Position numbers and translations under genes: made by a program. The notes below the pieces were generated by a model that worked only from the letters and a program-made list of their open reading frames with translations, ran no database searches and was not told the DNA's origin. 36,712 nt of DNA from a virus, in the IMG/VR virus record IMGVR_UViG_3300033165_000009, positions 1-36,712 of that record. The stretch is one strand, 5' to 3'. Of this stretch, positions 7,209-36,712 are shown one piece after another (position 1 is the first letter of the stretch; every line of letters starts with the position of its first letter).

Positions 7209-8150
7209 ATGGCAAGTTTAAAAGAAATATACGCTGACTTTGAGAACGGAACCTACCTAGCAGAGCTTAAACTTTCAATGGTTGAAGGTTACAGATTCGC
7301 CGGTAACTTCCCACTCATGAAAGTGGACAATGAACAGGTTACAGTTGTTGAAAGCACACCAATTGACAAGTTCCTAACCCAGACTGGGAAGTCAAAGAAA
7401 CTGGCTAAAGGCGCAAGTGCACGCAAAATCCGTGGAGAAGTCATAACTCCAAGTGGATTCAAACTTGTGCATAATGAAATAGAATATAATATCCTTAACA
7501 GTGACATGGAACACCCTAACTTCAACCTCATGGATGAAATCAGTGCAATGGGATATGTCTTTGCTAATGATGTGGACGAAACCGTTTACAACACTGCCAA
7601 GGACAACGCCACTGTTGTAACTGATGATAAGATTATAGGGGAATGGGGTGAAAACGCCACTGAATTTAAATCCGTGCTCCGTGACTTGATGAGATTCCAG
7701 GCCAGTATCAGACCAAAACCATACAACATAAACATGGTTGCTTATGGAACCGAGGCAGACGTGGAATTAAAAGCCAGAGCAGCACAATCCGTTAGTGATT
7801 ACGTCCTCCCTCAGAACGGCTTTAAAATTAAAGATGCCCTGGACTTAGCCAATGCTAAGAACTTCTGGGGTGGAAGGAACTTTGATGATGGGGAGGCAAT
7901 AGGGTTTGACAGGGACATGCCTGCATTGGATGTGATCATGATGAAATACAACAACCCTAAAATCAAGTCCATGCCTACCATTGAAGGAATGGAATCCTTA
8001 CTCCCACCCGTGTCAATGTTAATGTTTGACAATGCTGATGAAGAGCACAGGCCAAGGACAACTATTAAAGTGGCTTGTACTGCTGGAGCTTACCCAAGGG
8101 CTCAGGGTGAAAGGATGATCCGTATTGCTGACCTGGTTACAGCAGGATGA
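7209..8150 (+). CDS. Major capsid protein (HK97 fold)
   Basis: 313 aa, strong GGAGGT RBS, canonical position, helix pattern (MDEISAMGYVFANDVDETVY) typical of HK97-type MCP. Confidence 0.8.
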   Translation: MASLKEIYADFENGTYLAELKLSMVEGYRFAGNFPLMKVDNEQVTVVESTPIDKFLTQTGKSKKLAKGASARKIRGEVITPSGFKLVHNEIEYNILNSDMEHPNFNLMDEISAMGYVFANDVDETVYNTAKDNATVVTDDKIIGEWGENATEFKSVLRDLMRFQASIRPKPYNINMVAYGTEADVELKARAAQSVSDYVLPQNGFKIKDALDLANAKNFWGGRNFDDGEAIGFDRDMPALDVIMMKYNNPKIKSMPTIEGMESLLPPVSMLMFDNADEEHRPRTTIKVACTAGAYPRAQGERMIRIADLVTAG

Positions 8151-8185
8151 TCCCATCCCTTTTCCTATTTTAAGGAGGGGATGAT

Positions 8186-9043
8186 ATGGATTATTTAAAC
8201 GTTTTAGATCATCTAAAAGCCTATTCTGTTGACAGGATTATTCTATCTGATTTTTCAAAGGACTGGGCAACCAATGGCACCGTAGCAGTTGAATTAACAG
8301 AAACACATGCAACCGTGCACACTGATTCTCTTGAAGTTTCTGGCATGATGGAAGGCGCCTATATTTACACGACCCGTGACTTTGAAGAAACAGAGGAGAG
8401 GAAAGCTTTCAGGTTAGATGACCGGGAAAATATACTACTCCACATATATTCAGACAGTGATATAACGGAGAAATCTTTGGAACTTATTTTATCTGACAGC
8501 ACCAATCTCACAACTGCAATAGTAACTATGGAACTCCCAGAATTAGAGGAGGGATTGGTTAATATTGTTGAACTACCCATCGCCAAAGAAGACATAGTGA
8601 AACTATCCAACATCACAAGCGTTGGAATCAAAGCCCTGAAAACCATCACGGCAACGATCAACCTAGCCCTAATCAACGCAACCAGCTCCAAATACATTGC
8701 AACCGTTGAAGACTTAGAACAAAAAATCAAAGAAGGAATCACCTATGTCTTATCAAAACTGGGCCCAGAATACACGACAGTACCAGATGACGATGAACTG
8801 GAAGGAGCAGTGTACCTGGCAGCTGCAAGTTACGCTTGGATGAAACAGAAAGAAAACGAACAATACCAGTTCGACTATGGGAACACAACCACAACGAAAA
8901 ACTATGGAGTGAGCTTACGAACCCGGGCAAAAATGATAGTTGACTCATTCCTAGCCGGAGGGGATGCTGAAAGCAGTGCCAATTCCGAATCAACAGAAAC
9001 GTATATTAACACAAGCTTGATAGGTTACAGCTTATTGAAGTGA
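8186..9043 (+). CDS. Head-tail adaptor (gp6/gp15-like C-terminus) with an extra N-terminal beta-sandwich domain
   Basis: C-terminal ATVEDL...EGITYVLSKLG...LEGAVYLAAASYAW helical adaptor pattern; about 170-aa N-terminal beta-rich extension. Confidence 0.6.
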   Translation: MDYLNVLDHLKAYSVDRIILSDFSKDWATNGTVAVELTETHATVHTDSLEVSGMMEGAYIYTTRDFEETEERKAFRLDDRENILLHIYSDSDITEKSLELILSDSTNLTTAIVTMELPELEEGLVNIVELPIAKEDIVKLSNITSVGIKALKTITATINLALINATSSKYIATVEDLEQKIKEGITYVLSKLGPEYTTVPDDDELEGAVYLAAASYAWMKQKENEQYQFDYGNTTTTKNYGVSLRTRAKMIVDSFLAGGDAESSANSESTETYINTSLIGYSLLK

Positions 9044-9049
9044 TCACTC

Positions 9050-9517
9050 ATGAAACAAATTGGAATCATAGACCTGGGCATCAAGGACATAATCTCACTC
9101 CTCGAACGTGACCCCATTCTTAAAACATTACCCACCTACCCATCACTCTGGGAGGTTGATGCCAACACCAGAAAACCATGCCAAAGTGTGGATCTGGATG
9201 TGGAAAAAGGCGAAGATACGGGATCCACCGGGGGATGTGTTGATGAATACCAGTGCTCAGGAGTAGTGATCCAGTACCTTGAACCCGACCACGCCAAGGA
9301 CCAGATCATGCCAGATTTGAATGAGTACCGGGAGAGAACAAGGAACATTTTCCGGGAATCAGTTCAACATGACTGGTTTGAAACTCTTGAAAGCGTTGAA
9401 TACAACCAATCCAAACCCATGCCCTGGGTGGTTCAAGGTAGGGAAGGGCCAAAGGTACTGGCCCATAGGATGATCACAGATTTCACAGCTACTTATGCTG
9501 TGAAGGAGGAAGTATGA
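9050..9517 (+). CDS. Putative tail terminator / completion protein
   Basis: 155 aa, position between adaptor and major tail gene, alternating alpha/beta pattern. Confidence 0.5.
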   Translation: MKQIGIIDLGIKDIISLLERDPILKTLPTYPSLWEVDANTRKPCQSVDLDVEKGEDTGSTGGCVDEYQCSGVVIQYLEPDHAKDQIMPDLNEYRERTRNIFRESVQHDWFETLESVEYNQSKPMPWVVQGREGPKVLAHRMITDFTATYAVKEEV

Positions 9518-9735
9518 AATTTAAATTTAATGGTAGAGATGGGATGAGGGACTTCAACCTAGTCATTGATGGGATTTTACCCATGGAAGAAACCCTCAAA
9601 AAGGGTCAGGAGATTGAAATACCAGATGATCATAAACTCGTCCCAAGACTAAGAGAAAATGGATTATGGGAAGAATTACCCGAACCCACAGAATCAACTA
9701 AGAAACCTAAATCTAAAACAAAAAGAGGTGAATGA
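9514..9735 (+). CDS. Small hypothetical virion-module protein
   Basis: 73 aa, ATGA overlaps on both sides. Confidence 0.6.
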   Translation: MKFKFNGRDGMRDFNLVIDGILPMEETLKKGQEIEIPDDHKLVPRLRENGLWEELPEPTESTKKPKSKTKRGE

Positions 9736-10859
9736 GTATGGGCGCACCACCAAACAGCCTTCACTACATGGGGTATGGTTTAAACCCTTATGAGGACGAC
9801 GTTCAAGTCCTTGGTAAAGTTTTACCAGTCATTTTTCCTAAAATGAAAACCTTCGAACCGGATAGTAAGATGGACCCAGAGGAGGATGAAGGACACACTG
9901 GGCAAGACACCATATTGTTAGGGGAAGACCGGAAAGAGGCCAGTTCCGCCCCCACAGTGGAGGATAAACTCAGATTAGGGGAAGGAATAGAGGATATACT
10001 ATTCCAACTTTTAGGGGCCAAAGATGAGGTTGTTCCGGCAGTTACGGGGGCGGCAGCTTCATATAAACATAAGTTTTACCGGGATGCATCAAACCCCCCA
10101 GTAGATTTACCCGTGGCTACGATAATAGAGGGGTTCAATTGGGGTGAAGCGAAACCAGAAGCATATATTAACCAGATGGTTGATTCTGTGGAGTTAGTAC
10201 TCAATGCTAACCAATCACCAACCTATAAGGCTAAGTTCATGGGGGACTTCCCCAAGTACAACCAATCTGAACCAACACTCGTATTCCCTGAAACTGAAAC
10301 CAGGTTCAAAGCTTACCAGACCTCAATTTATATAGGTCCAGTGGGCACGGCTGATGCAACACTCAAAACAGACACCTATAAGGTTGACTGTTATAATGAG
10401 GCTAGTTTGAACCTTAAAAACAACCTAGAACTCACTACCTGTGGAGGGACCACATTCGGAAGCCCAACCAAGAATAGGAAACCATTCTCAGGTGACACCA
10501 CCATCAAAATGGAGTACAATGAAAAGAACATGAACTTAGAAGCAGAATGGGCCACAGGAGCATCAGATGGGGTAGATCCAACTCCTGAGCCATTGTTCAA
10601 AAAGGTGATATTTAAAACAACTGGTAAGCTCATTGAATCAGTTGTAAACCCGGCCGCAACCGTCTATGCAGATATGGAAATAGTAATTCCAAAACTCTTA
10701 ATAGATAATGTAACCAGCCCTAGGAGTGGTAAAGACTATAAAAATATCACATTAACTGGGAAAATAGTTTCGAACGCATCCAGCCTGGTGAATCCTGTCG
10801 AAATAACCATGGTTACGCCGTTGGATGAATTGAATTATGGAACAATACCAACACCATAA
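9732..10859 (+). CDS. Major tail tube protein
   Basis: 375 aa, beta-rich, position upstream of chaperone and tape measure genes. Confidence 0.75.
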   Translation: MSMGAPPNSLHYMGYGLNPYEDDVQVLGKVLPVIFPKMKTFEPDSKMDPEEDEGHTGQDTILLGEDRKEASSAPTVEDKLRLGEGIEDILFQLLGAKDEVVPAVTGAAASYKHKFYRDASNPPVDLPVATIIEGFNWGEAKPEAYINQMVDSVELVLNANQSPTYKAKFMGDFPKYNQSEPTLVFPETETRFKAYQTSIYIGPVGTADATLKTDTYKVDCYNEASLNLKNNLELTTCGGTTFGSPTKNRKPFSGDTTIKMEYNEKNMNLEAEWATGASDGVDPTPEPLFKKVIFKTTGKLIESVVNPAATVYADMEIVIPKLLIDNVTSPRSGKDYKNITLTGKIVSNASSLVNPVEITMVTPLDELNYGTIPTP

Positions 10860-10878: not shown

Positions 10879-11551
10879 ATGAATCCAAGAGTATTTAAGG
10901 ACAAGATGGAAGAATTGATTGAAGCCTTTTAAGGAGAACAGCCTCGCTGTGGGCGTTCTATCCTTCACAGAGGCAATAGTCACTAACATAACCGCAACCA
11001 CTGGCAGTGATTTAACCATTGCAGGGGCAACCGGGAAGGATATTAAATTCACCCTAACAGATGCCAATGGGGCTAGGAAAGTAATTGTTTACGACAGTGG
11101 AGCAGTTGCAGTCTTAGATATTGACAGTAATGGTAAAGTTAAAGCTGCCGGAGGATTTGAGGGGGACCTTACTGGAGATGTTGCTGCCACCAGTGCATCG
11201 GACCTGACCATTGCCAATGCAGCTGCGGATAAGGACATAATTCTTAGTTTAGGTGATGCTGCTGCTGCTACTAAGATTTCAATAATTGACAGTGGTGAAG
11301 ATGAAGTGGCCAGTATCAACAGTAACGGTGAAATAGACGGTTCTGCAATGATAGCTCCACTCAAGTATGCTGCTGTTGAAACCAGTGGAGCCCCCACCAA
11401 TGCTGAATGTGTGTCTGCCTTCGGGGCGGCTGCAACAGTAGGGTCAGGATTTGTGGGAGTTCTTCAAGATAGTGGTGCTGAAGGAGTGTCCTATCTCTGT
11501 GTTTCCAACGGAACTAATTACGATGTGTTCACAGGGGCAGCTGCTGCATAA
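10879..11551 (+). CDS. Ala/Gly-rich fibre-like structural protein; reading requires a +1 shift at GCC TTT TAA (10924-10932)
   Basis: GGAGG RBS and ATG 10879 give MNPRVFKDKMEELIEAF*; the +1 frame continues KENSLAVG... to TAA 11551; two about 50-aa internal repeats (SDLTIA...KDI...DSG...I.SNG). Confidence 0.6.
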
Positions 11552-33321: not shown

Positions 33322-33570
33322 GTTGTAACTTTTTGTAACCTGATCCGACAGGTTACAAACTAGGAGTTTTGAGGGTGTTAAAAAATGTTTAAGGAGTGGA
33401 TTATTGTGTTTGTGATTTGTAACTTGGGTGGGGAGAGAGGGGGGGGTATAAAAAAAAGAGAGTGTTATCCCCAGGTTACAAAGTTACAAAGTTACAAATT
33501 GGTTACGTTTTTAGCCAAGTTACAAAGTTACAAAGTTACAATATTAAAAATATTTGATTATTTAATAAAA
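33311..33570. repeat. Iteron cluster, putative replication origin
   Basis: TTGTAAC at 33311, 33323, 33333, 33417; GTTACAA at 33352, 33475, 33483, 33491, 33519, 33527, 33535; central G-run and A-run; AT-rich tract 33541-33570. Confidence 0.8.
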
Positions 33571-33586
33571 TAGGAGGGTGATGTGT

Positions 33587-33952
33587 ATGGATGGTGATGT
33601 TATGGATAGGTTGTGGAAGTGGGCTGGGAACACTCGGCGGGATCATAAGCGTAGGGGCTTCCGGGTACGGATACACCGGGCGGAGATATATGATATGGCT
33701 GTGGAGGCTATGAAGACGGGGTGTTACTTCTGCCAGTGCAAACTAGTCCCCACAAAGTCGGGGAATAGTCAATGTACTTTGCCTAATCAGGTTAGTTTGG
33801 ATGTGGTGAACCCTAAGCACCGTGTCCTGGAGCCGGGTAATTGTCGGGTTATCTGCTGCTCCTGCAATAATGGTCGTATGGCGATGTCGGAGGCTGATTA
33901 TGTGGCTAAGTGTTTACGGGTTGTTGAGAATATGGTAGGGGTGAAAAGATGA
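33587..33952 (+). CDS. HNH-like (His-Me finger) Zn-binding nuclease-family protein
   Basis: CYFC...SLDVVNP...GNCRVICCSCNNG; GGAGGGTGAT RBS. Confidence 0.6.
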   Translation: MDGDVMDRLWKWAGNTRRDHKRRGFRVRIHRAEIYDMAVEAMKTGCYFCQCKLVPTKSGNSQCTLPNQVSLDVVNPKHRVLEPGNCRVICCSCNNGRMAMSEADYVAKCLRVVENMVGVKR

Positions 33953-34218
33953 AAATGTGTAAGATACATGATGAATTAGAATGTATAAGTTGTGAATACT
34001 GTAAAAACAAGCCCAACGATATTGATTTAAAAGAATACCTTCTAAGGCTCATTGATAATGACATTGAGGAAATTAAGGGGCCAATATATTTATTCAGTCG
34101 ATTAACTCATTACACAAAAGAACAGGAAAAACAATGTTATAAGGCTATTTTTGAGCTTAAAATGGCTGAAAGACTTAAAGAAGATGTTATTGATTTATTT
34201 GAAAGGGTGAAACCATGA
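33949..34218 (+). CDS. Hypothetical protein with N-terminal Cys/His cluster
   Basis: CKIH...CISCEYC; ATGA overlaps. Confidence 0.65.
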   Translation: MKMCKIHDELECISCEYCKNKPNDIDLKEYLLRLIDNDIEEIKGPIYLFSRLTHYTKEQEKQCYKAIFELKMAERLKEDVIDLFERVKP

Positions 34219-34388
34219 TTGAACTAAACCAAAGCAAAGGTGTGATTGATTTCATCCTACAACGGGATGAAATAGTAAAGGTCAGGGGGAATACTTACCT
34301 ACATTGCAGTTTTGAGGATTTGATGAGTGTGGATGGGATAGGAGAACGCAAAGCAAACAGCATTAAAGAATACTACTTCGAGAGGTGA
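34215..34388 (+). CDS. 57-aa mini protein ending in a helix-hairpin-helix motif nearly identical to the XPF nuclease C-terminus
   Basis: MIELNQSKGVIDFILQRDEIVKVRGNTYLHCSFEDLMSVDGIGERKANSIKEYYFER; GGGTGA RBS; not in ORF track. Confidence 0.65.
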   Translation: MIELNQSKGVIDFILQRDEIVKVRGNTYLHCSFEDLMSVDGIGERKANSIKEYYFER

Positions 34389-34389
34389 T
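34312..34389 (+). repeat. 78-bp direct repeat, copy 1
   Basis: 72/78 identical to 36395-36472; first 46 bp identical. Confidence 0.95.
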
Positions 34390-34393
34390 ACGG

Positions 34394-34624
34394 ATGCAAG
34401 ATTGTGATCAGTTTGAGATGTTTTACCAAGATGTTGCTAAAAGTTATTCAAGGTACAACACTGTTTTAATCAGATCTGATTTTTATAAAACCGTTGAAAC
34501 GGGGATGAGGGGGATTGAAAAATATTGGGACGGTAAAGAAGTATTTGGGCTTGAAGTATTAGAAGTAGATCAATTCAAATTCCCAGACTACATGTTTATT
34601 AATTTAAAAGAGGGGATTAAATGA
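34394..34624 (+). CDS. Hypothetical protein
   Basis: ATG after GAGGTGAT RBS supplied by the repeat end. Confidence 0.6.
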   Translation: MQDCDQFEMFYQDVAKSYSRYNTVLIRSDFYKTVETGMRGIEKYWDGKEVFGLEVLEVDQFKFPDYMFINLKEGIK

Positions 34625-34776
34625 ATAACTGCCCTATCTGCCAAACACCCGTACACGTACTCCCCAGCGCTGATAATCGGGGATTCAAATATGACCATAA
34701 AACTAAGGAAATATATCATTTGTCGTGTTGGACACTACAACAAACCACGACTGAGGGGGTGAAAGCCGATGTATGA
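34621..34776 (+). CDS. 51-aa Zn-finger microprotein (CxxC...HxxC)
   Basis: MNNCPICQ...YHLSCW; ATGA overlap. Confidence 0.6.
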   Translation: MNNCPICQTPVHVLPSADNRGFKYDHKTKEIYHLSCWTLQQTTTEGVKADV

Positions 34777-34927
34777 TCATTGCTCATATTGTGGGCAATA
34801 CCAGGAACTCATAACCGATGATCCAATAACAGTGGCTGATGATGATTGTTTTGAGATGATTGTAGTGGGCTTATGCGTACGATGTAAAAAGCTATTCCAA
34901 AGAACAATATTCAAGGTGGAAATATGA
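34769..34927 (+). CDS. 52-aa Zn-finger microprotein
   Basis: CSYC...CVRC; GGGGGTGA RBS. Confidence 0.6.
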   Translation: MYDHCSYCGQYQELITDDPITVADDDCFEMIVVGLCVRCKKLFQRTIFKVEI

Positions 34928-34939
34928 GGGGAAAAGTAT

Positions 34940-35060
34940 GTATATAAGTTCACACAATATATTAACTAGGGAGGAGTGTTCTTTGACTCCGCTCTTCCCT
35001 AACTCCAATCATGGGGTGCAATCAGAGTCAAAGGGAGTTAAATTTAAGGAGTCAGGTAGT
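34940..35060 (+). promoter_or_regulatory. Promoter and structured leader of the homing endonuclease gene
   Basis: GTATATAAG box at 34940; pairings 34967-34977/34991-35001, 34981-34989/35025-35033, 35000-35006/35034-35040, 34984-34990/35048-35054 (RBS). Confidence 0.5.
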
Positions 35061-35837
35061 ATGGTATATGGATATATCTACAAAATAGTGAACACCCTAA
35101 ATGGTAAAGTGTATATTGGTCAAACAACCCAAGACCCATATAAACGCAAATCAAACCATTTATGTGAATTAAAAAATAATAAGCATAACAATTCACACTT
35201 GCAAAATGCTTTTAATAAGTATGGCAAATCTAATTTTAAATTCACTGTTCTAAAATACGCTACTTCTAAAAGGGTTCTTGATAAATTAGAAGAGGATTAT
35301 ATTAATTCCTATGATTGTTTGAATGATAAAAATGGATATAACATTCGAAGAGGGGGAGCTAATGGGAAACATTCAGAAGAAACATGTAAGAAAATTAGCA
35401 AAGCCCGAAAAGGTAAAAAGGCATCCCTAAAAGCTCGTAAGAACATGAGCAAGGCCCATTCTGGTAAAAATAACCATATGTATGGGAAAAGGGGACCACT
35501 GGCTCCAATTTATGGCAAAAAATTAAGTGAAGCCGCTCGTAATAAAATTAGCAAAGCCAAAAAAGGTAAAAAACGTCCCAATCTTTCTGGTGAAAAACAT
35601 CCGTATTATGGTAAAAAACGTCCCATCGACATCATCAAAAAGATGAGTATAACTCGACGAGGAGAGGGGTTATTTGGTTTTACTGGTGCTCACTTTAGGA
35701 AGGATCTTAATCCCGAAAACATACCATGGCGATCTCATATTCACTATAATGGCCGTAATAAACATTTGGGGTATTTCAATGATCCATTAAGTGCTGAGAT
35801 AGTTCATGATTTAGTTATGGGGGCATTATATGAGTAA
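35061..35837 (+). CDS. Free-standing GIY-YIG homing endonuclease with NUMOD3 repeats and C-terminal AP2-like domain
   Basis: GYIYKIVN...VYIGQT; HSEETCKKISKARKG and LSEAARNKISKAKKG; FTGAHF...WRSHIHYNGRNKHLGYF; ATG 35061 after AAGGAG. Confidence 0.85.
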   Translation: MVYGYIYKIVNTLNGKVYIGQTTQDPYKRKSNHLCELKNNKHNNSHLQNAFNKYGKSNFKFTVLKYATSKRVLDKLEEDYINSYDCLNDKNGYNIRRGGANGKHSEETCKKISKARKGKKASLKARKNMSKAHSGKNNHMYGKRGPLAPIYGKKLSEAARNKISKAKKGKKRPNLSGEKHPYYGKKRPIDIIKKMSITRRGEGLFGFTGAHFRKDLNPENIPWRSHIHYNGRNKHLGYFNDPLSAEIVHDLVMGALYE

Positions 35838-36471
35838 TGTGTTCTTAGATTCTAGAGAACCCTCTCATATTAAAGAATTATTTCTTAAAACTTTTTCAAC
35901 AGGGGAGGTTACAATGTTGCCTGTTGGAGATTTGGTTTACCCCACTAACAGCGTTTGCTGTGAAAGGAAAACAGTAGAAGATTTTATATCTTCCGTTATG
36001 GGGAGATTATGGGTTCAGTTGCAGAATATGATTGAAAATTACCAACACCCTTACTTAATTATTGTTGGACGTTTTGATGAAGAAGAGGTTATGAAACACA
36101 CTTCTTTCACTCGGAAACAGTTTTTAGGGGCATGTGCGAGTATATCGGCACGGTATAAAATCCCAGTGTTTAATGTTGATTCTAATAGGGATTTTTTCAC
36201 CTTGTCAAAGGCATTGATGGAGAAAAGTGATGGTTCACTTAAACATTTAGATAAGGTTAGGAGGTTGGCTGTTAGTGATGGGGATGTTTTAGAGGCTATG
36301 GTTAGTTGTATTCCTGGGATTGGGTTGGAGTATTCTAAGAGGATTATAGATGTTTTGGGGGTTGATAGTATTATAGAGTTATGTAAAACCACGGTTGAGG
36401 ATTTGATGAGTGTGGATGGGATAGGAGAACGCAAAGCAAATAACATTAAGGAATATTATTTTGAGAGGTGA
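35830..36471 (+). CDS. ERCC4/XPF-family nuclease with C-terminal tandem HhH
   Basis: DSRE, GDL...ERKTVEDFISS nuclease motif; IPGIG and VDGIG HhH motifs. Confidence 0.9.
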   Translation: MSNVFLDSREPSHIKELFLKTFSTGEVTMLPVGDLVYPTNSVCCERKTVEDFISSVMGRLWVQLQNMIENYQHPYLIIVGRFDEEEVMKHTSFTRKQFLGACASISARYKIPVFNVDSNRDFFTLSKALMEKSDGSLKHLDKVRRLAVSDGDVLEAMVSCIPGIGLEYSKRIIDVLGVDSIIELCKTTVEDLMSVDGIGERKANNIKEYYFER

Positions 36472-36472
36472 T
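36395..36472 (+). repeat. 78-bp direct repeat, copy 2 (3' end of XPF gene)
   Basis: 72/78 identical to 34312-34389. Confidence 0.95.
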
Positions 36473-36476
36473 TAGA

Positions 36477-36712
36477 ATGGATGATAAAATATGCGAATGG
36501 TTTAAAAAAGAAGTGGCAAGACAAAAAGAAGAGGCATATATCCAAGGTAGAAATGATGGTTTTGATATTGCCATTGAAATATATGGGCTTGATAAAAATA
36601 ATAATTATAAAGAGAAATGGGATAAGCTTAGGGATCACTTAATATTTAATCGTGATGCTCCATTCCAGTTGTTTAAGGGTTATTATCAATCATTGCTTGA
36701 TTTTATGGATAT
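36477..36712 (+). CDS. 3'-truncated hypothetical protein
   Basis: MDDKICEWFKKEVARQKEEAYIQGRNDGF... open to the window end; GAGGTGAT RBS. Confidence 0.6.
   Translation, partial: MDDKICEWFKKEVARQKEEAYIQGRNDGFDIAIEIYGLDKNNNYKEKWDKLRDHLIFNRDAPFQLFKGYYQSLLDFMD

Follow-up and report, generated by a model that had tools for sequence, protein, structure and literature searches.

Why does a virus of a methanogenic archaeon carry the final 24 codons of an XPF nuclease gene twice, once at the end of the intact gene and once, about 2 kb upstream, at the end of an open reading frame (ORF) for a protein of 57 aa? The locus lies in the virus record IMGVR_UViG_3300033165_000009 of IMG/VR, which is complete, 36,712 bp long and classed as linear; this whole stretch is called the window here. 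A predicted GIY-YIG homing endonuclease gene (HEG) lies between the 57-aa ORF and the intact XPF gene. The initial annotation proposed that the small protein, which contains a helix-hairpin-helix (HhH) motif, is a catalytically empty partner or decoy of XPF, and that the repeat bounds a cassette that was acquired by integration and can be excised. The comparisons described below suggest instead, with a probability of roughly 75%, that the repeat is the scar of modular recombination among Drs3-like Methanobacterium viruses.

The nearest isolate, and the only close one, is Methanobacterium virus Drs3 (Anaerodiviridae; host M. formicicum; L004 in the comparisons), with which the window is collinear in gene order, the record being permuted. 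Two further relatives, denoted L007 and L008, are just two contigs from a single metagenome scan. An additional IMG/VR contig of 7,645 bp from sample 3300033176, denoted L005 or L006, is 100% identical to positions 34929-36712 of the window (1784 nt) and extends 5.7 kb past the window end, where it shows the genes that follow XPF in the window virus.

Direct repeat

The two copies of the repeat are as follows.

34312..34402, + strand: repeat copy 1, probable 3'-end relic of an XPF gene of the Drs3/L008 type, followed by the ribosome-binding site (RBS) and start codon of the next gene
36395..36485, + strand: repeat copy 2, working 3' end of XPF, running on through the RBS into the 86-aa gene

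A repeat search aligned these two segments over 91 nt with 88% identity and a spacing of 2083. The core that had been reported initially, 34312-34389 against 36395-36472 with 72 of 78 positions identical, was reproduced and is thus part of a longer repeat. The first 46 nt of the core are identical, and the chance of sharing an exact 46-mer within 36.7 kb is about 1e-19 by our own arithmetic. Five of the six differences are synonymous third-position changes (AAC/AAT, AAA/AAG, TAC/TAT twice and TTC/TTT), and the sixth, AGC/AAC, exchanges Ser and Asn. As had also been recognized, both copies close with the RBS of the following gene, GAGAGGTGAT, and the homology runs through the start codon of that gene (MIRMQD versus MIRMDD).

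A conserved RNA structure was considered as the cause of the DNA conservation in the repeat and was rejected, where the folding z-scores were +0.66 to +0.91 and no Rfam match was obtained.

As for the origin of copy 1, it aligns with the XPF 3' end of Drs3 (9690-9778) at 95.5% identity (97.2% over 72 nt), and a single nt in 85 sets it apart from the corresponding end of the L008 XPF gene. Wherever copies 1 and 2 differ synonymously, at five sites in all, copy 1 has the Drs3/L008 state, which indicates that these differences were inherited between full-length working XPF alleles. Because they predate the 57-aa ORF, they say nothing on the selection of that ORF. The argument that the synonymous pattern makes both copies look selected as protein therefore loses its basis.

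The gene order around copy 1 points in the same direction. Four features are needed here.

33578..33952, + strand: 124-aa gene, left synteny anchor, with weak endonuclease VII-like similarity (phrog_1035, E=7.4e-5)
33949..34218, + strand: 89-aa orphan ORF, whose stop overlaps the start of the 57-aa ORF (ATGA)
34215..34388, + strand: 57-aa ORF, probably chimeric, residues 1-37 from a small-protein family and residues 34-57 from the XPF tail (second HhH motif)
34385..34624, + strand: 79-aa ORF without recognized relatives, at the position of the 86/89-aa gene of the relatives

In L008, the homologue of the 124-aa gene lies directly 5' of a C5 methyltransferase gene, which is followed by XPF; L008 1809-2204 aligns with window 33953-33557 at 89% (blastn). 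In Drs3 and L007, XPF is followed by a zinc-finger gene and then by a homologue of the 52-aa gene, which is the same order as that after copy 1. Judging by this synteny, copy 1 sits at the predicted ancestral XPF position, with the 124-aa gene upstream and two zinc-finger genes downstream. The segment at 33954-34311 (358 nt) stands in place of about 1.7 kb of the relatives, namely the methyltransferase gene and the XPF body. Its left joint, at about 33953, is where the similarity to L008 stops, immediately past the RBS and ATG that open the next gene, and its right joint falls at 34312.

The 89-aa ORF in this segment had no homologue but itself among 5.8 billion proteins, and it gave no Pfam or PHROG match. 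The 79-aa ORF has only the first few codons in common with the 86/89-aa gene (BLASTP against the 86-aa protein, E=0.083).

The genes displaced in the relatives are Drs3_00012 (Drs3 7974-9107, annotated as a hypothetical protein) and L008 452-1546 on the reverse strand, which are homologues. Both were judged by eye, from motifs in the translation, to be putative C5 DNA cytosine methyltransferases. The C5 methyltransferase gene is absent from the window stretch examined (33578-36712).

57-aa ORF

The 57-aa ORF gives a single HhH match, to Pfam HHH at residues 32-53 with E=3.7e-6, which is above the cut-off, and it does not have the two HhH motifs that make up an (HhH)2 domain. Residues 1-37 match six clusters of proteins of 51-54 aa with identities of 69-77%. 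One of these, P0036, was obtained by an exhaustive HMMER (phmmer) search of 1.84 billion representatives, where it was the sole N-terminal match besides HhH-repeat proteins; the other five, P0138-P0142, came from a word-based search at 90% clustering, with E-values of 6e-9 to 4e-11. The invariant stretches of this family, GVIDFIL and NTYLHC, are present in the 57-aa ORF together with the pattern F-E/K-D-L-M/C. All six small proteins end in the conserved tail IVGNYTPVNYEGVN, and none of them has an HhH motif. The 57-aa ORF lacks this tail and has SVDGIGERKANSIKEYYFER in its place, being the only family member with an HhH tail.

The N-terminal part is no remnant of the XPF family that can be detected by profile comparison, as hhalign of the 51-54-aa family against the XPF family gave a probability of 2.3%. 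An alignment by MAFFT of the N-terminus to the first HhH motif of XPF was rejected as homology after this profile-profile test. Scans of the viral contig collection with the 124-aa protein, P0036 and the small-family alignment gave no match, nor did scans of the genome contig collection with the XPF family and the 51-54-aa family; the ESM Atlas gave no usable match.

Taken together, the 57-aa ORF is in all probability a recombination chimera, with its joint on the EDLM codons common to both parents. The tail is nearly identical to an XPF allele, whereas the N-terminus has diverged by about 25% from its family; therefore, the tail is the recent acquisition. Because the ORF has native start signals, it is probably translated. 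It shows no sign of adaptation: it has one HhH motif, the family tail is lost, and the tail that it has shows no divergence of its own.

Intact XPF nuclease

Two features describe the downstream copy.

35830..36471, + strand: intact short XPF/ERCC4 nuclease of 213 aa, with Pfam ERCC4 and (HhH)2 matches
36313..36533, + strand: segment of high identity to Drs3 and L008, comprising the (HhH)2 coding region and the start of the 86-aa gene; 87.3% to Drs3 9606-9826 and 93.3% to L008

The 213-aa protein matches ERCC4 (PF02732) with E=5.4e-15 and 56 bits against a cut-off of 24, and it matches HHH_5 (PF14520) with E=1.6e-8 at residues 161-208. In a family alignment of 16 sequences that includes the window protein, the residues D34, E45, R46, K47 and D51 of the catalytic signature GDXnERKX3D are invariant; the translation reads G33-D34. 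The protein is thus a predicted XPF/ERCC4 nuclease having the ERCC4 domain, the catalytic signature and the (HhH)2 domain. The identification of XPF in the initial annotation, together with those of the GIY-YIG endonuclease and of HhH in the 57-aa ORF, is borne out by Pfam and PHROGs.

The protein is 52.8% identical to the XPF protein of Drs3 (Drs3_00013), and the identity is distributed unevenly. The sliding nucleotide identity to Drs3-type XPF is 37-63% in the first part and jumps to 88-98% at about alignment column 168 (about 36313). This jump coincides with the boundary between the nuclease and (HhH)2 domains, and the high identity continues into the next gene. For the nuclease domain (35830 to about 36312), nothing closer than about 52% was found among the 5.8 billion proteins. 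The intact XPF is therefore itself a predicted domain chimera, in which a divergent nuclease domain is joined to an L008-like (HhH)2 domain. The XPF genes of Drs3, L007 and L008 are also mosaics of one another.

At XPF codon 205 (36442-36444), a strain polymorphism, N205S, was observed in the variant P0032, which occurs on 8 contigs, one of them 38,055 nt long. N205S is the sole difference between P0032 and the window XPF, it falls on the sole non-synonymous site of the repeat, and the tail of P0032 equals that of the 57-aa protein. This is a hint of exchange between the repeat copies, and gene conversion between the two tails is a related possibility. Codon 205 is also R, A or K in the relatives, and because it varies, coincidence at this site is plausible.

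Proposed course of recombination

The breakpoints may be explained as follows. In the lineage of the window virus, a foreign segment of 358 nt would have taken the place of the C5 methyltransferase gene and the body of XPF, bringing in the 89-aa orphan and, from a gene of the 51-54-aa family, the leading two-thirds. Copy 1 would be what survived of the Drs3/L008-type XPF gene, that is, its last 75 coding nt (the 24-codon tail), the stop codon, the RBS and the next start codon. The left joint would have been made at a gene boundary and the right joint in frame on the shared EDLM codons, where short-homology or illegitimate recombination is the suggested mechanism. The 57-aa ORF would thus have kept the start signals of the small gene and gained the last HhH motif of XPF. 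With the tail retained, the downstream gene would also have kept its RBS and start codon. The nuclease function would have been kept by the second XPF allele 2 kb downstream, which appears chimeric itself and lies directly behind the HEG unit. The 57-aa protein would then be a tolerated by-product rather than an adapted protein.

Several points weigh against this interpretation. The ORF keeps an intact frame, a native RBS with the ATGA overlap and a complete HhH motif, and its exact sequence is found on 18 contigs, so that a function is possible. The EDLM microhomology is read from the protein sequence only. AlphaFold2 models were uninformative, with a predicted local distance difference test (pLDDT) score of 47 for the native small family and 44 for the chimera. 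The order of events may also have been either of two: unequal recombination made the duplication and the first XPF was replaced later, or XPF was lost and then regained.

HEG unit and duplication of the neighboring genes

The space upstream of the intact XPF gene is occupied by the following unit.

34932..35837, + strand: free-standing GIY-YIG/NUMOD3 HEG unit of 0.9 kb, with a leader of about 130 nt and an ORF

Within the ORF at 34938-35837, GIY-YIG (PF01541) was matched with E=1e-9, NUMOD3 (PF07460) with E=2.4e-17 in four stretches, and phrog_314 with E=6.4e-41. The likely start is the ATG at 35061, after AAGGAG. The unit fits exactly between the 52-aa stop codon and the XPF start, and no such HEG was found upstream of XPF in Drs3, L007 or L008. 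A second HEG unit of the window virus is located at L005 5943-6849, with a protein 47% identical to the first and a homologous leader of about 130 nt. The HEG thus has the properties of a discrete intergenic insertion, present or absent among the relatives, and would encode a putative homing enzyme. The foreign XPF segment beside the HEG and the resident-like segment farther away form the pattern that would be expected from homing with co-conversion of the flanks, by analogy with the T4 Seg enzymes (PMC2988022, PMC13096335).

The second unit is inserted directly after the stop of a metallophosphatase gene, and an HNH endonuclease gene is located at L005 3348-4163. The contig L006 starts at 34929, which lies at the left edge of the HEG unit, 2 nt past the 52-aa stop codon; this position may reflect HEG-plus and HEG-minus variants, or two HEG copies that break the assembly.

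The duplication around XPF is larger than the repeat. The genes concerned are as follows.

34621..34776, + strand: copy a of the 51-aa zinc-finger gene, whose homologue in Drs3 is the C-terminal part of Drs3_00014
34769..34927, + strand: 52-aa zinc-finger gene, whose homologue follows the first zinc-finger gene in L007
36468..36712, + strand: 5' part of the 86-aa gene, truncated at the window end and continued in L005

Copy a of the zinc-finger gene is 85% identical to Drs3 9826-9969 and 91.7% identical to L005 2625-2732. The 52-aa gene matches L007 1605-1766 (BLASTP, E=2e-10), and an unannotated ORF of Drs3 at 10975-11076 is homologous to it (tblastx, 41% over 34 aa). In L005, XPF is followed by the 86-aa, 151-aa and 108-aa genes and then by copy b of the zinc-finger gene (L005 2570-2737). 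The block that extends from the XPF end to the zinc-finger gene thus occurs twice in the window virus, and its internal genes differ. The genes between the XPF end and the zinc-finger gene are listed below.

Window, copy-1 locus: the 79-aa gene
Window, copy-2 locus (via L005): the 86-aa, 151-aa and 108-aa genes
L007: a single gene of 89 aa, homologous to the 86-aa gene
Drs3: none; here codons 1-19 of the 86-aa gene lead directly into the zinc finger

The fusion in Drs3 is Drs3_00014 (Drs3 9770-9973), where the first 19 codons of the 86/89-aa gene are joined in frame to the zinc-finger gene; the two genes are separate in L007 and in the window virus. Because Drs3_00014 is also a fusion, the locus repeatedly yields chimeric small ORFs, and the stretch is a recombination hot region.

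Alternative explanations

The position of the HEG unit raises the question of whether homing produced the duplication. In that case, a break made by the GIY-YIG enzyme would have been repaired from a co-infecting relative with one legitimate and one ectopic end, and the HEG, XPF and downstream genes would have been placed behind the resident block that runs from XPF to the zinc finger. The junction of the two blocks is indeed the left edge of the HEG unit (34928-34932), and the succession of a foreign nuclease domain near the HEG and a resident-like (HhH)2 domain far from it resembles a co-conversion tract. The proposed course would be analogous to that in T6, where the GIY-YIG homing endonuclease SegB drives the tandem amplification of segments, whose repeat joint shows microhomology (PMC13096335). 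However, the two blocks have diverged by about 8% and differ in their internal genes, so no recent tandem amplification is seen, and the replacement that created the chimera is left unexplained by this mechanism alone. Such a HEG-driven duplication is considered unlikely, with a small but real chance.

Somewhat more doubtful is that a circular cassette of 2083 bp (the 79-aa gene, the two zinc-finger genes, the HEG and XPF) entered a genome that had the chimera but no XPF, through one crossover in the homologous XPF tail, and could be excised from it again. The block is flanked by direct repeats with a 46-nt identical run, and past the start codon the context of copy 2 matches L008 for about 42 nt, as the recipient side would. 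On the other hand, there is no integrase or recombinase among the five ORFs of the block, and no such family was matched in any ORF at 33578-36712 (Pfam, PHROG). None of the relatives has the block as a unit, and the 51-aa and 52-aa zinc-finger genes are syntenic with the post-XPF genes of Drs3 and L007. The HEG is a separate unit of 0.9 kb, and the duplication runs beyond the repeat to the second zinc-finger gene. The numbers of contigs per gene are similar (10 to 22), with no hint of deletion variants, and the loss of the sole XPF would probably be selected against. For the presence or absence of the whole block, Drs3, L007 and L008 are poorly informative, since many rearrangements, and not this block, separate them from the window. 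Of the cassette proposed initially, the role of the repeats as recombination joints stands, in the sense of a mosaic, and the HEG-nuclease cassette of 2083 bp as a demonstrable unit does not.

The partner or decoy function of the 57-aa protein was the other initial proposal. XPF-family proteins dimerize through their (HhH)2 domains, as is established, and a small protein adapted to bind the (HhH)2 domain of the viral XPF or host XPF/Hef, or DNA, might modulate the nuclease. The intact HhH motif with its Pfam match above the cut-off, the native translation signals, the recurrence of the exact sequence and the identity of its tail to that of the sister-strain XPF P0032 (N205S) are in favor of this. 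However, the stable dimerizing unit is (HhH)2, whereas the 57-aa protein has one motif only; its N-terminal 37 residues come from an unrelated family; and its tail and a full-length XPF allele (that of L008) differ at only 1 of 85 nt, so that the tail is too recent to show selection of its own. It is also the sole family member with this tail, and the invariant native tail is lost. An adapted partner is thus unsupported and improbable, and an equally slim chance is given to the co-option of an accidental fusion, in which the chimera would bind the (HhH)2 domain of XPF or its DNA substrate and tune or poison XPF or Hef dimers. If this were true, the 57-aa chimera would be a viral microprotein, newly arisen, that regulates a structure-specific nuclease; unless the chimera is active, no new biological question is opened.

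It is highly improbable that the repeat is an artefact of assembling two co-occurring strains, as the initial annotation had allowed: the source is a metagenome and the contig from sample 3300033176 begins at the equivalent of 34929, which may be a graph branch at the HEG edge, but both copies lie in one contig with differing sequences, L005 is 100% identical over 1784 nt, and JGI and ENA assemblies contain each of the exact proteins (57-aa, HEG and XPF) on 10-19 contigs. The exact 57-aa protein is carried by 18 contigs, the HEG by 16 and XPF by 10, with 8 more for the one-residue XPF variant. The longest contig listed, of 38,055 nt, is the same for the 57-aa protein, a 299-aa form of the HEG and the XPF variant, and other long contigs recorded for these protein clusters are 31,079 and 29,614 nt. 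Because the exact proteins recur in several assemblies, a one-off assembly error is unlikely.

Repeats upstream of the locus

At window 33475-33541, the 8-nt unit GTTACAAA is repeated in tandem about eight times, in two clusters. The copies sit in a non-coding gap of 256 nt located 3' of the gene for an 881-aa primase (Prim-Pol), and they are candidate iterons or a candidate replication origin.

Comparison with known systems

Among the known components of the locus, the intact XPF resembles the short archaeal-type XPF Drs3_00013, being a 213-aa protein with ERCC4, the GD...ERK...D signature and a C-terminal (HhH)2 domain. It differs from Drs3_00013 in that its nuclease domain has no relative above about 52%, while its (HhH)2 domain reaches 88-98% DNA identity to Drs3-type genes. 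The 57-aa ORF falls outside the short XPF family, of which it carries only the last 24 residues. Compared with the 51-54-aa family, it is alike in residues 1-37 (69-77%), and the tail IVGNYTPVNYEGVN is swapped for the HhH tail of XPF. For annotation, the lesson is that the label of XPF partner should be avoided for the 57-aa ORF. A further caution is that repeat differences that are synonymous only can be inherited from functional parents and are no proof of selection on a fragment.

The HEG is like the free-standing GIY-YIG HEGs of the T4 type (Seg) in its architecture, its exact intergenic insertion, its presence or absence, the divergent segment of the neighboring gene and the occurrence of a second paralogue. 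Unlike the Seg genes, it is found in an archaeal virus, and homing by it is putative. The repeat also lies differently, 0.5 kb upstream of the HEG unit and at the far end of the neighboring gene, rather than flanking the unit.

The mosaicism of tailed phages arises by Hendrix-type illegitimate or short-homology recombination, and conserved boundary "linker" sequences occur in lambdoid phages. As in phage mosaic joints, the window locus switches sharply from about 99% identity to none at a gene end or at the next RBS and start, reuses short conserved sequences, swaps modules and leaves gene fragments and fused small ORFs. It is unlike them in that the host is a methanogenic archaeon, and in that one joint is intragenic and by chance in frame, making a chimeric microprotein with an HhH motif. 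The locus is thus ordinary mosaicism of the phage type, in a new and well-resolved instance in an archaeal virus. It combines swaps at gene boundaries, a nuclease gene of two lineages, a HEG at the seam and an in-frame joint that yields a new microprotein, and it provides a case, resolved to the breakpoints, of tailed viruses of methanogens shuffling genes as bacteriophages do.

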